A stretch of DNA of 64,000 bases from Clostridia bacterium (lineage in GTDB: Bacteria; Bacillota; Clostridia; TANB77; CAG-508): positions 10,661 to 74,660 of the forward strand of contig JAGAED010000002.1 of NCBI GenBank assembly GCA_017613275.1, given 5' to 3'. The position numbers and the translations under genes are program-made. Positions 2,865 through 28,500 of the stretch are shown piece after piece. How positions within the stretch are numbered: position 1 is the first letter of the stretch; every line of letters starts with the position of its first letter. A model generated the notes under the pieces. The model was not told where the DNA came from. It searched no databases and saw nothing but the letters and a program-made list of their open reading frames with translations.

Positions 2865-2897
2865 TAAAACAAATATTTCAAAAGGATGTGGTTATAT

Positions 2898-3203
2898 ATG
2901 AAAAAAATAAATGTAAAAAGAAGGACCAATATTAAGGCTATAATTGCTATAGTTCTAGCAATATTAGCAATAAATTTAATAACATCAGTAAATAAATCAT
3001 ATTCAAAAGTTGAGATAAGCTATAAGACAGAATATGTAAGTTGTGGAGATACATTGTGGTCAATTGCAAAGAGAGAAAGCAAAAACAACAAATATTATCA
3101 AGATAAAGATGTTAGAGAAATAATATACGATTTAAAGAAAATAAATAACTTATCAAATTCGGATTTAAGTGAAGGGCAAGAAATAAAGATACCAAAGATG
3201 TAA
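2898..3203 (+). CDS. Small membrane-anchored LysM protein, YneA-like candidate SOS cell-division inhibitor
   Basis: N-terminal basic stretch plus TM helix (AIIAIVLAILAINLI), C-terminal LysM (YVSCGDTLWSIAKRE...LSEGQEIKIP). Size and architecture resemble B. subtilis YneA. ATG 2898 is preferred (aaagga 11 nt upstream); the ORF track starts at 2886. Confidence 0.6.
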   Translation: MKKINVKRRTNIKAIIAIVLAILAINLITSVNKSYSKVEISYKTEYVSCGDTLWSIAKRESKNNKYYQDKDVREIIYDLKKINNLSNSDLSEGQEIKIPKM

Positions 3204-3256
3204 ATAAAAAAAATAGTTTTAGGTTAAACTAATCAAAAAGAAAAGGCGGAAAGAAA

Positions 3257-4255
3257 ATGTTTAAACCTAAAACTATTTTTTATGAAAAAGAAATTATAAA
3301 TTATGAGCTTGGAAAAGAATTAATGGAAAAATACAAAGCAATTCCTAAAATAGAAATTGAAAATCACAACAACATAGAAGAGTTAAGAAAAAGCGAGAAC
3401 AAGGAGTTTTTAAATCTAAAAAACAATCTAATAATTGGAGTTAGAAAAACACATAACTTTGTGGAAAACCACAAAGTTTCAGATTATTTAGTTCCATATA
3501 CTTCTTCTGGTTGTAGTGCTGCATGCATGTATTGCTATTTGGTTTGTAATTACAACAAATGTAGCTATTTAAGGCTATTTGTAAATAGAGAGCACATGCT
3601 AGATAAAATCATAAAAACGGCAGAAAAGTCAGAAAGAAATTTAACTTTCGAAATTGGTAGCAATAGTGATTTAATACTAGAAAATACGATAACAGGAAAT
3701 TTGCCATGGACAATAGAAAACTTTAAAAATACATCAAAAGGAATGCTTACATTTCCAACAAAATTTGACATGGTAGATGACATTTTAAATGTAGACCATA
3801 AAGGAAAAGTAATTGCAAGAATGAGTGTAAATCCAGATGAAATAATAAAACAGGTAGAGTTTGGGACTTCAAGGTTAAAAGGTAGGATAGAGGCAATAAA
3901 TAAATTAAAAGAAGCGGGGTATAAAGTAGGAATTCTAATTGCACCAGTAATAATGGTAGATAACTGGAAAGAACTCTATTTAGAACTAATTAAGCAGTTG
4001 GAAAGATGTTTAAGCCCACAAGTAAAAAAAGAAGTATTTTTTGAAGTAATTTTTATGACATATAGCTATGTTCACACAAAAATAAATGAGGAGGCATTCC
4101 CAAATGCAATAAATCTATACAGCAAAGACCAAATGACAGGGCGTGGTAGAGGAAAATACATGTATAGAAATGAATTAAGAAAAGATGGCGAAGCCTTTAT
4201 GCGTGAACAACTTGGCAAATATTTTTCTAATAATAAAATCTTATATGTAGTGTGA
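3257..4255 (+). CDS. splB: Spore photoproduct lyase family radical SAM enzyme
   Basis: 332 aa. CxxxCxxC radical-SAM cluster motif in SSGCSAACMYCYL. Length and N-terminal layout are typical of SplB. RBS aaaaggcgg upstream. Confidence 0.7.
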   Translation: MFKPKTIFYEKEIINYELGKELMEKYKAIPKIEIENHNNIEELRKSENKEFLNLKNNLIIGVRKTHNFVENHKVSDYLVPYTSSGCSAACMYCYLVCNYNKCSYLRLFVNREHMLDKIIKTAEKSERNLTFEIGSNSDLILENTITGNLPWTIENFKNTSKGMLTFPTKFDMVDDILNVDHKGKVIARMSVNPDEIIKQVEFGTSRLKGRIEAINKLKEAGYKVGILIAPVIMVDNWKELYLELIKQLERCLSPQVKKEVFFEVIFMTYSYVHTKINEEAFPNAINLYSKDQMTGRGRGKYMYRNELRKDGEAFMREQLGKYFSNNKILYVV

Positions 4256-4271
4256 TTTTTGCATTATAATG

Positions 4272-4300
4272 TTGACAAATAAACTAGATTAACATATAAT
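4272..4300 (+). promoter_or_regulatory. Sigma-A type promoter of the cysS leader
   Basis: TTGACA 4272-4277, 17-nt spacer, TATAAT 4295-4300. Begins 17 nt after the splB stop. Confidence 0.7.
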
Positions 4301-4328
4301 ATTACTAAATAAAAAAGGAGAAAACAAA

Positions 4329-4370
4329 ATGAAAAATAAAAATATAATCTTTAATTGTTGTTGTAGATAA
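4329..4370 (+). CDS. 13-codon leader peptide MKNKNIIFNCCCR with three consecutive Cys codons
   Basis: AAGGAG at 4315-4320, 8 nt before ATG 4329. TGT TGT TGT at 4356-4364, then AGA TAA. Lies between the promoter and a terminator upstream of cysS. Confidence 0.6.
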   Translation: MKNKNIIFNCCCR

Positions 4371-4449
4371 AATGCTCTATCTATTGTAGATAAGAGTATT
4401 AGTTAGTGTACCCCTACAATAGAGATTATATTTATAAATAAAGTATAAG

Positions 4450-4478
4450 AACTATGTGGGGAAAACACATAGTTTTTT
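4450..4478 (+). terminator. Leader terminator (attenuator) in front of cysS
   Basis: aactatgtg (4450-4458) / cacatagtt (4466-4474), loop gggaaaa; the right arm ends in tt and four further T follow (T run 4473-4478). The cysS RBS aggagg follows at 4485-4490. Confidence 0.75.
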
Positions 4479-4498
4479 GAATATTAGGAGGTATTATT

Positions 4499-5968
4499 AT
4501 GAAAATTCATAATTCAATAACAGGAAAAAAAGAAGAATTTATACCAATAGATGGAAAAAATGTTAGAATGTACGCATGTGGTGTTACAGTTTACGATTTA
4601 AGCCACATAGGTCATGCAAGACAAGCGATTGTATATGCAATGATGGCAGATTATTTAAGATATAGAGGATATAATGTAAAATATGTCAGAAACTATACAG
4701 ATGTAGATGACAAAATTATAAAAAGAGCAAATGAACGTGGAAAAGACGCGCTAGAATTTTCAAAAGAACAAATAGAAGAATCAGAAAAAGATATGGCTGC
4801 TTTACATGTAACAGAAGCAGATGAGAAGCCAAAAGCATCTGAATACATAGGCAAAATAATAGAATTTGTTCAAGGCCTAATAGAAAAAGGATATGCATAC
4901 CCAGCACCAAATGGAGATGTATATTATAGAGTTAGAAAATTCAATGGTTATGGAAAATTGTCACATAGAAATGTTGATGAATTATTAAATGGAGTTCGTA
5001 AAGAGCTAGAAGAAGGAAAAGAAGATCCATTAGATTTTGCACTTTGGAAATCAGCAAAACCGGGAGAAATATCTTGGGATTCACCATGGGGAAAAGGTAG
5101 ACCAGGTTGGCATATCGAATGTTCTGTTATGGCAAAAGATACATTGGGCGAATCAATAGATATCCATGGTGGTGGAAGAGATTTGGTATTCCCACATCAT
5201 GAAAATGAAATTGCACAAAGTGAAGCCTTAACAGGAAAGCCATTTGCAAAATATTGGTCACATTGTGGTTTGATAAAAATAAATGGCGAAAAAATGAGTA
5301 AATCTTTAGGAAATTCTATAACAATTAGAGATGCTCTAGAAATGTATAATTATGAAGTCTTAAAATATGTATTTTTTGAAAAACACTATGCTTCAGATGT
5401 GGATATTTACGATAAAGATTACAAACAAGCTGAAAATCATATGTATTATTTTTACAATTCAATCAAAAACATGGAAAATTACGTAAAAGAAAATAATGGG
5501 GATAAAGATGGGCAAAAAGTTGAAGATGACATATCAGCTTCAATAAAAGAAAAATTCATTGAAGTAATGGATGATGATTTCAACACATCAGCTGCAATAG
5601 CTCAATTACATGTAATATTTAAATATGTAAATAACCTAATGAAAACAGCAAAAAAAGCAAATAAAATACTTGCAGCAAACACAATTGCAAACATATTAGC
5701 TGAAGTAAAAGAAGTTTATGGAGTTCTAGGATTTTTCAAACAAGAGCCAGATGAATTTATAAACAATATGCAAGAGAAATATTTAAAAGAGTTAAATATA
5801 GAAAAACAATACATAATTGATGAAATAGGTAAAAGAAAAGAAGCAAAACAAAATAAAGATTATCAATTAGCAGATGAAATAAGAAGCAATCTAGATGAAA
5901 AAGGAATTATTTTAAATGATACACCAGAAGGAACAACATGGGATATAAAATCACTATATCAAATTTAA
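4499..5968 (+). CDS. cysS: Cysteine--tRNA ligase
   Basis: Class I aaRS motifs HIGHAR and KMSKSLGN; 489 aa; strong RBS. Confidence 0.96.
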   Translation: MKIHNSITGKKEEFIPIDGKNVRMYACGVTVYDLSHIGHARQAIVYAMMADYLRYRGYNVKYVRNYTDVDDKIIKRANERGKDALEFSKEQIEESEKDMAALHVTEADEKPKASEYIGKIIEFVQGLIEKGYAYPAPNGDVYYRVRKFNGYGKLSHRNVDELLNGVRKELEEGKEDPLDFALWKSAKPGEISWDSPWGKGRPGWHIECSVMAKDTLGESIDIHGGGRDLVFPHHENEIAQSEALTGKPFAKYWSHCGLIKINGEKMSKSLGNSITIRDALEMYNYEVLKYVFFEKHYASDVDIYDKDYKQAENHMYYFYNSIKNMENYVKENNGDKDGQKVEDDISASIKEKFIEVMDDDFNTSAAIAQLHVIFKYVNNLMKTAKKANKILAANTIANILAEVKEVYGVLGFFKQEPDEFINNMQEKYLKELNIEKQYIIDEIGKRKEAKQNKDYQLADEIRSNLDEKGIILNDTPEGTTWDIKSLYQI

Positions 5969-5974
5969 AATGGA

Positions 5975-6018
5975 AAAAAATGAAATATAATAATTTTAAT
6001 TATTATATTTCATTTTTT
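5975..6018 (+). terminator. Long AT-rich hairpin terminator after cysS
   Basis: aaaaaatgaaatataataatt ... aattattatatttcatttttt, a near-perfect palindrome followed by a T-run. Confidence 0.7.
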
Positions 6019-6058
6019 AATTAAATATGATAAAATATGCAAAAAGGAAACGAGAAAT

Positions 6059-6934
6059 ATGGTAAAAAGAATAATATTAGAAATAATTTTAATTGTAATA
6101 ACTGTACTTGTAGTTATATGTGGTTACTTTTTAATATTAGACATTGAAAGCAATGTACCACAGGAATTGCGAGACAAAGTAGAAATTGATACAAAAGAAT
6201 TTATGGAAAGAAAGGTTTTTGAAATATCACCAAAAAATAAAGAAGATAAAAGCAATAAAACAATTCTTTATTTCCATGGGGGAGCATATGTGGCAGAGGC
6301 AACTGATGAACATTGGAATTTCTTAGCAAAATTAGTAAATGATACAAAGGCAACAGTAATAATGCCAGATTACCCATTAACACCAAAATACACATACAAA
6401 GATGTTTTAAAAATGATAGAACCTGTTTATAAAGAGACACTTGCAAAAGTTGGTGCAAAAAACCTAATAGTAATGGGAGATTCAGCAGGTGGAGGAATGG
6501 CGCTTGGTTTATTAGAAAAACTAAGCCAAAGCAATGTTGAAATGCCAGCAAAAACAATACTAATTTCACCATGGCTAGATACAACAATGTCAAATTCAAA
6601 AATCGACGAAGTTCAAAAAAATGATAAAGACTTAAACAAAGAAAAACTATATTTAGCAGGAACTTCATATTCAAGAGATTTAAAACAAGAAGAAGAATAT
6701 TTTGTGAATCCAATAAATGGTAAATTTTCTAAATTAAAGAATCTAGTAATTTACACAGGAACTTATGATATATTAAATCCTGATTGCCATTTATTAAAAG
6801 AAAAGGCAGAAAAAGAGGGAGTTGACATTACAATAAAAGAATATGAAACAGCTCCACATATTTGGATAGTAAATAATGAAGACGAGTTGGCCATTTCGGC
6901 TTACAATGATTTGATTTCATCTTTATTAAATTAA
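6059..6934 (+). CDS. Membrane-anchored alpha/beta hydrolase (esterase/lipase, HSL-like family)
   Basis: N-terminal TM helix, oxyanion-hole motif HGGAY and nucleophile elbow GDSAGG. Confidence 0.8.
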   Translation: MVKRIILEIILIVITVLVVICGYFLILDIESNVPQELRDKVEIDTKEFMERKVFEISPKNKEDKSNKTILYFHGGAYVAEATDEHWNFLAKLVNDTKATVIMPDYPLTPKYTYKDVLKMIEPVYKETLAKVGAKNLIVMGDSAGGGMALGLLEKLSQSNVEMPAKTILISPWLDTTMSNSKIDEVQKNDKDLNKEKLYLAGTSYSRDLKQEEEYFVNPINGKFSKLKNLVIYTGTYDILNPDCHLLKEKAEKEGVDITIKEYETAPHIWIVNNEDELAISAYNDLISSLLN

Positions 6935-6944
6935 AACTAATTAT

Positions 6945-7104
6945 GAATTTATATTATTTTTTATGCCTTGTCGTCGCAACTTCCGTTGTTGTACAGAAAA
7001 ATTGTTATACAATTTTTCGCACAACTAGTCTGTCAGTTGCTCCAGGTCGCACTCGCCAAAGGCTCGTTTGGCGCTTTCGCGGCATTTAAAAATAATATAA
7101 ATTT
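6945..7104. repeat. GC-rich about 113-bp insert (6968-7080) enclosed by a locus-specific AT-rich inverted repeat; copy 1 of a two-member repeat family
   Basis: Arms gaatttatattattttttatgcc (6945-6967) and ggcatttaaaaataatataaattt (7081-7104) are complementary. The core shares blocks with 40158-40250 (21/26 identical in ccttgtcgtcgcaacttccgttgttg). Nested hairpins gcaact/agttgc, gttgt/acaac, gaaaaattg/caatttttc. Confidence 0.7.
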
Positions 7105-7134
7105 ACATAGTAAAATGAATAGGAGTAATATAAA

Positions 7135-8160
7135 ATGAAAAATATAAAAGATTATAATTTAGATGCTTTAAAAGCAGAAATGGCTGAGCTTGGCGAAAAG
7201 CCATTTAGGGCAGAGCAAATTTTTAAATGGTTATATCAAGACAAAGTAGAGTCATTTGACGAAATGCTAAATCTATCTTTAGAACTAAGAGAAAAATTAA
7301 AACAAAACTACACAATATGCAATTTTGAAATAATAAGAAAACAAGAATCATCAGATGGAACAATAAAATACTTATTTGACGTGCTAGATGGAAATGCAAT
7401 AGAAACAGTTTTAATGAGTTATCATCATGGGTATAGCGTTTGTGTTTCAACACAAATAGGATGCAAAATGGGATGCAAATTTTGTGCTTCAACAGGTATA
7501 AAATTTATTAGAAGTTTAACTTCTGGAGAAATTGTTGAGCAAATTATAAAAATAGAACAAGATACAGGAGTAAGAGTATCAAATGTAGTATTTATGGGGA
7601 TTGGAGAACCATTGGATAATTATGAAAATGTTGTAAATGCTATAAGAATATTAAATAATCCTAAAGGAATAAATATTGGTGCAAGACATATAAGCGTTTC
7701 TACAAGTGGTTTAGTTCCAATGATTTATAAATTAGCAGAAGAAAACATTCAATGTACACTTTCAATCTCACTTCATGCAACAACAGACGAAAAGCGTAGT
7801 TCAATGATGCCAGTAAACAAGCTATACAATATAGAACAATTATTGCAAGCATGTAAAGACTATATAAAAGTTACAAATAGAAGAGTTTCTTTTGAATATG
7901 CTTTAGCAAAAGATAACAATGATAATTTAGAAGATGCTGCAAGGCTTGTAAAACTTTTAAAGGGAATGAATTGTCATGTAAATTTAATTCCAATTAACAA
8001 AATAGAAAATGGTAAATTTGATAAAAGTACAAATGAAAATATAATGAAATTTAGGGATTACCTAAATGACCATGGAATTGTTGCAACAATTAGACGTGAA
8101 CTTGGTTCAGATATTGATGCAGCATGTGGTCAATTACGTAGAAAAAACTTAAAAGATTAA
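7135..8160 (+). CDS. rlmN: 23S rRNA/tRNA adenine-C2 methyltransferase RlmN (radical SAM)
   Basis: GCKMGCKFCAST CxxxCxxC motif. N-terminal FRAEQIFKWLY motif typical of RlmN/Cfr family; 341 aa. Confidence 0.92.
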   Translation: MKNIKDYNLDALKAEMAELGEKPFRAEQIFKWLYQDKVESFDEMLNLSLELREKLKQNYTICNFEIIRKQESSDGTIKYLFDVLDGNAIETVLMSYHHGYSVCVSTQIGCKMGCKFCASTGIKFIRSLTSGEIVEQIIKIEQDTGVRVSNVVFMGIGEPLDNYENVVNAIRILNNPKGINIGARHISVSTSGLVPMIYKLAEENIQCTLSISLHATTDEKRSSMMPVNKLYNIEQLLQACKDYIKVTNRRVSFEYALAKDNNDNLEDAARLVKLLKGMNCHVNLIPINKIENGKFDKSTNENIMKFRDYLNDHGIVATIRRELGSDIDAACGQLRRKNLKD

Positions 8161-28390: not shown

Positions 28391-28419
28391 AATTCGAAAG
28401 CTTAGCTTTCGAATTTTAT
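28391..28419. terminator. Bidirectional terminator between rnr and spoVM
   Basis: aattcgaaagc / gctttcgaatt, 3-nt loop, T-rich on both outer sides. Confidence 0.8.
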
Positions 28420-28422
28420 TTA

Positions 28423-28500
28423 TCATTTTTCTTTTATTCCAAAAATAAGCTTCACAAAACCCCTTAAAAATCTAGGAACTTTTTTTACAACAACTTGCAT
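28423..28500 (-). CDS. spoVM: Stage V sporulation protein M (25-aa amphipathic peptide), below the ORF-track length cut-off
   Basis: aaggagg 8 nt upstream. Peptide MQVVVKKVPRFLRGFVKLIFGIKEK aligns with B. subtilis SpoVM MKFYTIKLPKFLGGIVRAMLGSFRKD (recalled from memory). It lies 471 nt from rpmB, separated by two small ORFs; I recall the two genes being close in B. subtilis. Confidence 0.75.
   Translation of the reverse strand: MQVVVKKVPRFLRGFVKLIFGIKEK

Follow-up and report, generated by a model that had tools for sequence, protein, structure and literature searches.

A candidate Cys-codon leader-peptide attenuator in front of cysS in a lineage of Clostridia

Introduction

What controls cysS, the gene of cysteine--tRNA ligase, in a Clostridia bacterium in which the gene is preceded by a short open reading frame (ORF) that ends in a run of Cys codons and by a predicted terminator? 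The locus lies in a stretch of 64,000 nucleotides (nt) of contig JAGAED010000002.1 (positions 10,661 to 74,660, forward strand), which was analysed as a whole, is called the window here and is numbered from its first letter. Synthetase genes of Firmicutes are the textbook territory of T-box riboswitches, in which a specifier codon and the T-box sequence recognise uncharged tRNA directly, without translation. A sequence-only reading of the window proposed that at this place, where a T-box is expected, a ribosome translating a Cys-codon leader selects between a terminator and an antiterminator, and it left the polarity of the switch unsettled.

Here we examined the leader by comparison of orthologous loci, by RNA folding with and without a modelled ribosome and by covariance-model scans. 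The results make it probable that cysS is controlled by a transcription attenuator of the ribosome-mediated, leader-peptide type, with charged tRNA-Cys as its signal. The most likely polarity, judged from the model, is that a shortage of Cys-tRNA stalls the ribosome, the stall favours an antiterminator and cysS is transcribed.

Results

Conserved parts of the cysS leader

DNA of six orthologous leaders beyond the window was obtained through exact-protein look-ups of CysS sequences 84-93% identical to that of the window, and the alignment comprised seven distinct versions (window, L161, L162, L163, L174, L164 and L168). Every CysS examined at 84-100% identity (489 or 491 aa) carries the leader. 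Helix columns of the alignment were 84-94% invariant and linkers 25-56%, compared with 23% for the four-fold degenerate columns of cysS in the same seven sequences (counts per element are given in Table 1).

The promoter of the leader is the only 12/12 consensus match that a pattern scan found within 3000-7500, and both hexamers are fixed in all seven leaders while the spacer between them is fixed at just 7 of 17 positions. Transcription probably starts near 4307, leaving a 5' untranslated region (UTR) of ~22 nt ahead of the upstream ORF (uORF). The Shine-Dalgarno (SD) sequence of the uORF is AAGGAG, AAGGGG or AAGAGG in all orthologues, though the 5' UTR around it is so variable. The uORF, which is presumably translated, keeps its SD, start, frame, Cys-Cys-Cys, single basic codon (Arg or Lys) and stop in 7/7 leaders, and the frame is retained even in L164, where the ORF carries a 12-nt insertion. 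The orthologous peptides (MSNKNIIFNCCCR, MNNKNIIFNCCCR, MKNINIIFNCCCR, M(E)MKMKMKRINIIVNCCCR and MDKVNIITNCCCK) share the C-terminal motif N-I-I-x-N-C-C-C-[RK], and the lone substitution inside the Cys run, in L161, is a synonymous change of TGT to TGC. Cys makes up 1.29% of codons in the genes of the window, and a single Cys-Cys dipeptide occurs among their 14,147 codons. Enrichment of TGYTGYTGY was also considered as evidence and was rejected; its 12 occurrences in the window, against 4.5 expected, are mostly the reverse complement of other codons.

The genes upstream of this unit differ among the loci. A spore photoproduct lyase gene precedes it in the window, L161 and L162; a CTP_transf_like gene followed by its own terminator in L163; a gene on the opposite strand in L164; and a glycyl-tRNA synthetase (GlyRS) gene, again followed by its own terminator, in L174. 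Because the promoter-to-terminator block accompanies cysS behind four different upstream contexts, it belongs to cysS. The predicted terminator ends 20 nt ahead of the cysS start with no promoter between them, so that cysS depends on read-through, and since the SD of cysS is free of the leader helices, control would be exerted at transcription and not by masking of the ribosome-binding site (RBS).

Table 1 Features of the cysS leader in the window and their invariance in seven leaders
Feature	Position	Strand	Basis	Invariant positions
Sigma-70-type promoter of the leader-cysS transcript	TTGACA 4272-4277, 17-nt spacer, TATAAT 4295-4300	+	12/12 consensus match	12/12 (hexamers)
5' UTR				7/28
SD of leader ORF	AAGGAG 4315-4320, 8 nt ahead of ATG	+	read directly; unpaired in predicted fold	
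Leader ORF, 13 codons and stop, MKNKNIIFNCCCR	4329-4370 (ATG 4329, TAA 4368-4370)	+	sole SD-preceded small ORF in leader	
Three consecutive Cys codons TGT TGT TGT (codons 10-12), proposed sensing codons	4356-4364	+	Cys-Cys-Cys invariant in 7 leaders	
Helix P1, 5' arm, inside leader ORF (codons 4-10, first Cys codon included)	4340-4358, partner 4416-4433	+	minimum-free-energy fold and RNAalifold	16/19
Local hairpin P2, starting directly 3' of the stop codon	4371-4400 (4371-4383 with 4387-4400)	+	-11.1 kcal/mol, z = -4.55	27/30
H23 left arm, tctattgtag (helix of the sequence-only reading)	4380-4389, partner ctacaataga 4414-4423	+	perfect 10 base pairs (bp)	
Linker	4401-4411			4/11
Segment 3, shared switching strand	4412-4433	+	3' arm of P1 (4416-4433) and of H23 (4414-4423), 5' arm of antiterminator (4412-4422)	19/22
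Antiterminator right arm, ctatgtgggg (terminator left arm and part of loop)	4452-4461, partner 4412-4418 and 4420-4422	+	10 bp, one bulged A	
Predicted intrinsic terminator, loop GGGAAAA	4450-4478 (stem 4450-4458/4466-4474, T run 4473-4478)	+	-13.3 kcal/mol, z = -6.98	17/18 (stem)
Spacer after terminator				2/9
SD of cysS, AGGAGG	4486-4491	+	outside every leader helix	
cysS, cysteine--tRNA ligase, 489 aa, regulated gene	4499-5968	+	NCBIfam TIGR00435, E=5.7e-160, 533 bits vs cut-off 340	

Alternative structures of the leader RNA

The region 4305-4500 folded with z = -4.55, and a consensus structure computed with RNAalifold on the seven leaders independently gave the same three elements, P1, P2 and the terminator. 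P1 pairs 4340-4353 with 4420-4433 and 4355-4358 with 4416-4419 (18 pairs), and its cells are paired at 99.3% across the seven leaders versus 29-52% in controls with a slid partner. All compensatory variation is confined to this helix, namely C-G to U-A in L164 and L168 and U-A to A-U in L168; there is also a U-G to C-G change in L168 and one G-A mismatch in L164. The substitutions in P1 also alter the leader peptide (F to V or T), and the three variable positions of segment 3 include the partners of the covarying P1 pairs.

P2 sequesters 4380-4389, with a G-U/A-U alternation at one of its pairs, and may be a pause hairpin. H23, for which the same ten bases serve as left arm, is perfect in 6/7 leaders and has one U-U mismatch in L168. 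In the ribosome model described below it forms only once the ribosome masks up to about 4377-4380, suggesting that H23 would act as an alternative anti-antiterminator after P2 is opened.

The antiterminator structure (4412-4461) has -16.5 kcal/mol, compared with -13.3 kcal/mol for the terminator, and the two are mutually exclusive and energetically balanced. Its pairing is retained in all seven leaders (C-G becomes U-G at one pair) and survives the CCCC/CCC/UCC variation. A U-rich tract follows the terminator stem in all seven as well, and the hairpin probably ends transcription at 4478. The pattern scanner listed this hairpin on the minus strand only, where no gene would use it, and in our reading this is because the plus-strand stem can extend into the T run.

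Most of these parts had been named in the sequence-only reading. Its consensus promoter at 4272-4300 proved right base by base, and so did the mini-ORF with the strong SD at 4315-4320, the three TGT codons at 4356-4364, which are Cys codons in all seven leaders, the perfect pairing of 4380-4389 with 4414-4423 and the terminator (4450-4474, T run 4473-4478) ahead of the cysS RBS. It also noted that the 10-mer ttgtagataa occurs at both 4361-4370 and 4384-4393, as it does; the uORF end and the P2 loop and 3' arm can consequently both pair with CUACAA (4414-4419). For the antiterminator it paired cccctacaatag (4411-4422) with ctatgtgggg (4452-4461), and the complement is there but the better register lies one base over. 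The competing helices that it listed exist, but P1 and P2 had escaped it.

Effect of ribosome position in the folding model

To represent a ribosome, pairing was forbidden across a footprint that began 15 nt 5' of the P-site codon and reached 12 (or 15) nt past the first base of the A site, and the probability of the terminator helix at folding equilibrium was taken as the readout of the switch in the seven leaders. Free RNA forms P1, P2 and the terminator, with a terminator probability of at least 0.99 in 7/7 leaders. When the A site was placed on codons before the Cys run or on the first or second Cys codon, the terminator probability dropped to 0.00-0.09 in six of the seven leaders; in this Cys-stall state the ribosome masks the 5' arm of P1, P2 is intact, and segment 3 is paired with the left terminator arm. 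Moving the A site to the basic codon or the stop brought the terminator back at the +12 footprint (probability 0.95-1.0, again in 6/7 leaders), as P2 is opened and 4380-4389 captures 4414-4423 to form H23. In the model, stalls thus give read-through over a zone whose 3' edge is occupied by the Cys codons, the place that regulatory codons also have in classical attenuators.

When 4371-4449, between the ORF and the terminator, was shuffled with dinucleotides preserved and the ORF and terminator kept, none of 200 shuffles switched, and only 2 of the same 200 lost the terminator at the stall on the first Cys codon.

The folding therefore yielded the mutually exclusive structures that the sequence-only reading had envisaged, and the polarity that it could not settle comes out, in the model, as read-through upon a Cys stall. 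The orthologous leaders speak for its proposal too, with the mini-ORF, the Cys run, the helices and the terminator kept in all seven and P1 covarying. Its central claim, that a ribosome on the Cys-codon leader selects between terminator and antiterminator, was supported by all of the computational tests.

Search for a T-box

No T-box or other Rfam family reached gathering score in the window, where only two tRNAs did, and an Rfam scan of 4150-4600 at E<=10 returned no T-box (RF00230) but chance-level matches only. The best permissive Rfam match, to FsrA (23.8 bits vs an 80-bit cut-off, minus strand), was discarded as merely the terminator palindrome. In the nine loci of the leader clade and its sisters, a scan with RF00230 found no T-box, whereas the same model placed T-boxes ahead of cysS, at a distance of up to 2.5 kb, in 6 of 20 other Firmicute loci. 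Neither Stem I nor a specifier loop nor a T-box sequence was apparent in the ~170-nt leader alignment. As far as sequence analysis allows, the covariance-model scans refute a T-box here. The expectation of a T-box at this place holds for Firmicutes in general but not for the leader clade and its sisters, and the attenuator proposed in its stead survives the scan.

In L174, the GlyRS gene (829-2211, within L174:740-2257) lies directly upstream of the cysS leader and ~90 nt from folD, and its upstream region contains no T-box at the Rfam gathering score. In Bacillus, glyQS serves as the model T-box gene, so the absence here is a hint that T-boxes may be missing from this lineage more widely.

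Distribution and origin of the leader

The Cys leader was not found in front of CysS genes at 76-83% identity (L165, L166, L167 and L171). In L165 and L167 a homologous promoter lies ~25 nt ahead of the start codon with no Cys leader, and L171 has a long unrelated spacer instead. L166, whose CysS is 83% identical and the closest outside the leader clade, has the homologous promoter (1457-1485) and a different leader of ~100 nt (L166:1457-1590), which contains a perfect 16-bp hairpin (1508-1523/1535-1550) without a U tract and without a Cys uORF; this hairpin may be an independent insertion at the same spot.

Leader-bearing CysS proteins are monophyletic in a neighbour-joining tree, which fits a single gain. 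In a scan of 173 cysS upstream regions, convincing Cys-run uORFs were restricted to the leader clade, and the other lineages gave 2 weak TTG-start matches, compared with 10 in the reverse-complement control. Distant loci with 42-49% identical CysS, found through the universally conserved peptide pattern WHIECSVM, served as controls. A second copy of the element was found neither in the window (conserved 25-mer, <=3 mismatches) nor in viral contigs. We lean towards the view that a synthetase gene of one lineage within Clostridia recently acquired a Cys-sensing leader-peptide attenuator, through one gain between a pre-existing promoter and cysS, with relatives that have neither the Cys leader nor a T-box; this history is a good deal less secure than the attenuator itself.

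The repeated 10-mer may be a trace of the origin of the attenuator. Birth of the uORF by duplication of the cysS start was tried as an explanation and rejected, as the alignment score of the uORF against the 5' end of cysS equals the median of shuffles. In L164 the attenuator terminator is separated from cysS by ~60 additional nt, and within these (L164:2442-2468) TTGATA, a 15-nt spacer and TATAAT overlap the end of the terminator T run; these could be a bypass promoter that frees cysS from attenuation.

Other features of the window and related loci

The host is an uncultured, Clostridia-like bacterium with 29.6% GC and sporulation genes. Genes identified in the window are gatA/gatB, RNase R, adhE, pknB, priA, ffh and spoVB, and it holds no synthetase gene besides cysS. 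A small LysM-type ORF (2886-3203) lies between dnaJ and the spore photoproduct lyase gene, in the same position in related loci, with a sub-threshold match to the cell-division suppressor YneA (49.9 bits vs a cut-off of 60). Directly after the stop codon of the RNase R gene there is a long perfect palindrome (28391-28431), probably a bidirectional terminator, which yields a cluster of spurious plant and animal miRNA matches in the permissive Rfam scan; a tmRNA was not found downstream of rnr. One CysS homologue (P0117, 76% identical) has 660 aa instead of 487, with an extra PF13958 match beyond the synthetase domains.

Discussion

Proposed mechanism and its difficulties

Taken together, the leader suggests the following course of events. 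Transcription would start at the consensus promoter, and a ribosome would load at the strong SD and translate the 13-codon leader ORF. When the ribosome is absent or has been released, 4340-4358 would pair with 4416-4433 as P1, P2 would form, the terminator would fold and transcription would stop 20 nt before cysS. When Cys-tRNA(Cys) is scarce, the ribosome would stall with the first or second Cys codon in the A site, covering the 5' arm of P1 and leaving P2 intact, and P2 would withhold 4380-4389 from segment 3. Because both of its other partners would then be lost, one masked and one held in P2, segment 3 (4412-4422) would pair with 4452-4461, the terminator would be blocked and RNA polymerase would enter cysS. 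Cysteine limitation should accordingly give read-through in the cell. RNA polymerase and the ribosome would have to be synchronised, which we suppose they are, perhaps by pausing at P2.

Several observations weigh against this course of events. The switch is less clean in L174, where the terminator probability is 0.1 just before the Cys run and 0.5-0.8 on it, and L168 keeps a low terminator probability while the ribosome is on Lys or the stop, regaining the terminator only as free RNA. The outcome also depends on the assumed footprint: at +15 the third Cys codon already gives the terminator, and when a ribosome is held on the stop with a footprint past 4383, the antiterminator returns. The last result implies that the OFF state needs ribosome release. 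Since a larger footprint reverses the stop-codon and third-Cys states, the OFF route common to all leaders would be ribosome release followed by P1, not H23.

The comparative evidence has its own difficulties. The conservation of the Cys run is not purely a coding signal, as part of the run also lies in P1. Covariation in P1 is real but thin as judged from the alignment, for the seven sequences are closely related, the signal consists of 3 compensatory cells in 2 pairs, and 17 of 500 column shuffles reach its score. The antiterminator shows no compensatory double change in the seven leaders. A physiological objection comes from Bacillus subtilis, in which RNA polymerase outruns ribosomes (reviewed in PMC7858274); if the same held here, ribosome-dependent attenuation would be harder.

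Other explanations for the leader

We then asked whether the same parts could be explained without a Cys-sensing ribosome. One possible interpretation is an attenuator driven by an RNA-binding protein or another trans-acting factor on P2 or segment 3, with the ORF incidental or modulatory. P2 is invariant at 27/30 positions including its loop and bulge, more than base pairing needs, and the terminator and antiterminator are true alternatives whatever triggers them. The invariance is, however, already explained by overlapping duties, as 4380-4389 serves P2 and H23 and 4412-4433 serves P1, H23 and the antiterminator. A factor would leave unexplained why the SD, start, frame, Cys-Cys-Cys and stop are conserved and the one change in the run is the synonymous TGC, and why covariation is seen only in the helix that translation would open up. 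The leader also matches no known protein-binding leader family, and we regard this explanation as unlikely.

Slightly less probable still is an independent small gene, a Cys-rich micropeptide or small-RNA unit, with cysS expressed by constitutive leak-through. A promoter, SD, ORF and terminator of the unit's own would fit such a gene, as would the conserved C-terminal motif of its peptide. The arrangement does not: only 20 nt without a promoter separate the terminator from cysS, and the unit accompanies cysS always, across genomic contexts. A conserved and energetically matched antiterminator would serve nothing in an independent gene, variation in the peptide (F/V/T) falls on the positions that covary with the partner strand of the RNA, and the match of Cys codons with cysS would be a coincidence, at roughly 2e-5 from the Cys codon frequency.

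The same parts might also work with an opposite or different logic, in which P2 is opened by a ribosome that has reached the stop codon, the antiterminator is thereby favoured, and Cys sufficiency or general translation capacity gives read-through. The footprint dependence described above is where this idea draws its strength, since a ribosome held on the stop with a footprint to 4383-4385 gives a terminator probability of 0.07-0.13, and the low terminator of L168 with the ribosome on Lys or the stop points the same way. Yet with the +12 footprint 6/7 leaders regain the terminator at Arg or the stop, ribosomes normally leave stop codons, and free RNA terminates in all seven leaders in the model. 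Inducing a synthetase amid plentiful product would be physiologically senseless, and nothing in this logic would call for Cys codons in particular at the edge of the read-through zone. We consider such a logic improbable, a shade more so than a small gene. A divergent T-box riboswitch that binds uncharged tRNA-Cys, suggested by the T-boxes ahead of cysS operons in the six other Firmicute loci, has next to no probability left in view of the scans of the window, of 4150-4600 and of the nine related loci and of an alignment without any T-box landmark.

Relation to known systems

If the leader is a Cys-sensing leader-peptide attenuator, its nearest counterpart is the uORFC-8-2 motif, a computational prediction from Rhodobacterales in which cysS is preceded by a terminator and by a uORF carrying two Cys codons in tandem (Brewer et al. 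2021, PMC8632094). All four general features of that motif are present here: a position directly upstream of cysS, a tandem-Cys uORF, Cys codons in the first stem (here the first Cys codon, in P1) and an intrinsic terminator. The proposed logic of read-through upon a stall on Cys is shared as well, in both cases as a prediction. The differences are the host (Alphaproteobacteria there, Clostridia here), the codons (two, mostly UGC, at codons 14-15 versus three UGU at codons 10-12 here) and the architecture, described as two stems there and made of five pairing segments here (P1, P2, H23, antiterminator and terminator). Compared by its published description, uORFC-8-2 has no evident sequence relationship to our leader, in which no Rfam family scored above chance. 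Common descent is unlikely because the host here is a 29.6% GC, spore-forming, Clostridia-like organism, and the leader looks like an independent invention.

The classical enterobacterial attenuators trpL, hisL, leuL and pheM, the last of the pheST synthetase operon (PMC4007540, PMC9413887), likewise have a short ORF behind an SD, a run of cognate codons towards the end of that ORF, and helices for anti-antitermination, antitermination and termination that overlap, and they terminate by default in the absence of leader translation; pheM is moreover a precedent for a synthetase gene under leader-peptide control. They belong to another phylum and are not homologous. In the leader described here, unlike in those, protection of the terminator falls to a strand that forms 18 bp with the ORF's own coding sequence (P1), and a separate hairpin, P2, guards the second possible partner, which gives two ways to switch off.

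Leader peptides reported in Firmicutes comprise His-codon leaders at hisS paralogues in bacilli (Naville and Gautheret 2010, PMC2965389), His leaders at his operons in Peptostreptococcaceae and Erysipelotrichales (PMC9413887) and branched-chain amino acid leaders at ilv-leu in S. aureus and L. monocytogenes (PMC6123439). These share with the present leader the phylum, the mechanism, a narrow lineage-specific distribution and a place where others use a T-box or a protein regulator, and they differ in the amino acid sensed and the genes controlled. A Cys leader peptide ahead of a Firmicute cysS was not described in the literature searched.

Cys-codon leaders are known from other phyla. Polycysteine leaderless small ORFs of mycobacteria were shown experimentally to act by RBS unmasking (Canestrari et al., bioRxiv 10.1101/834739), Cys-run leaders occur at cysteine biosynthesis operons in Actinobacteria (Seliverstov et al. 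2005, PMC1262725), and Deinococcus deserti has a leaderless peptide of 10 aa with two Cys ahead of cysS (PMC4007540). In all of these, as proposed here, stalling on the Cys run of a short ORF reports cysteine supply, and the Deinococcus case concerns cysS too. The mycobacterial and Deinococcus ORFs are leaderless, however, whereas the one described here has an SD and a ~22-nt 5' UTR, and its free cysS SD and terminator output set it apart from the mycobacterial RBS unmasking.

With a T-box the leader has in common its position, the class of gene regulated, the choice between terminator and antiterminator as output and the charging of tRNA-Cys as signal, but none of the elements that define a T-box.

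Implications

The cysS leader is most likely a known kind of attenuator in a new place, not a new mechanism. A survey of 2005 asserted that classical attenuation controls no synthetase gene of Firmicutes (PMC1262725), and the cysS locus offers a clean and comparatively supported counter-example to that statement, joining the His and branched-chain leaders described later. If functional, it would be the first leader-peptide attenuator of cysS in Bacillota, and the combination of a Cys-codon uORF with a terminator would have arisen independently in Clostridia, Rhodobacterales and Deinococcus. The gain is caught at a short evolutionary distance, as the sister clades keep the homologous promoter without the leader, and the lineage may thus be useful for studying how attenuators are born. 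If the proposed mechanism is true, ribosomes and RNA polymerase would be sufficiently synchronised for classical attenuation in a phylum in which transcription is thought to outrun translation, and the invariant P2 may be the pause element; the locus is relevant to the question of how widely uncoupled 'runaway' transcription occurs among Firmicutes.

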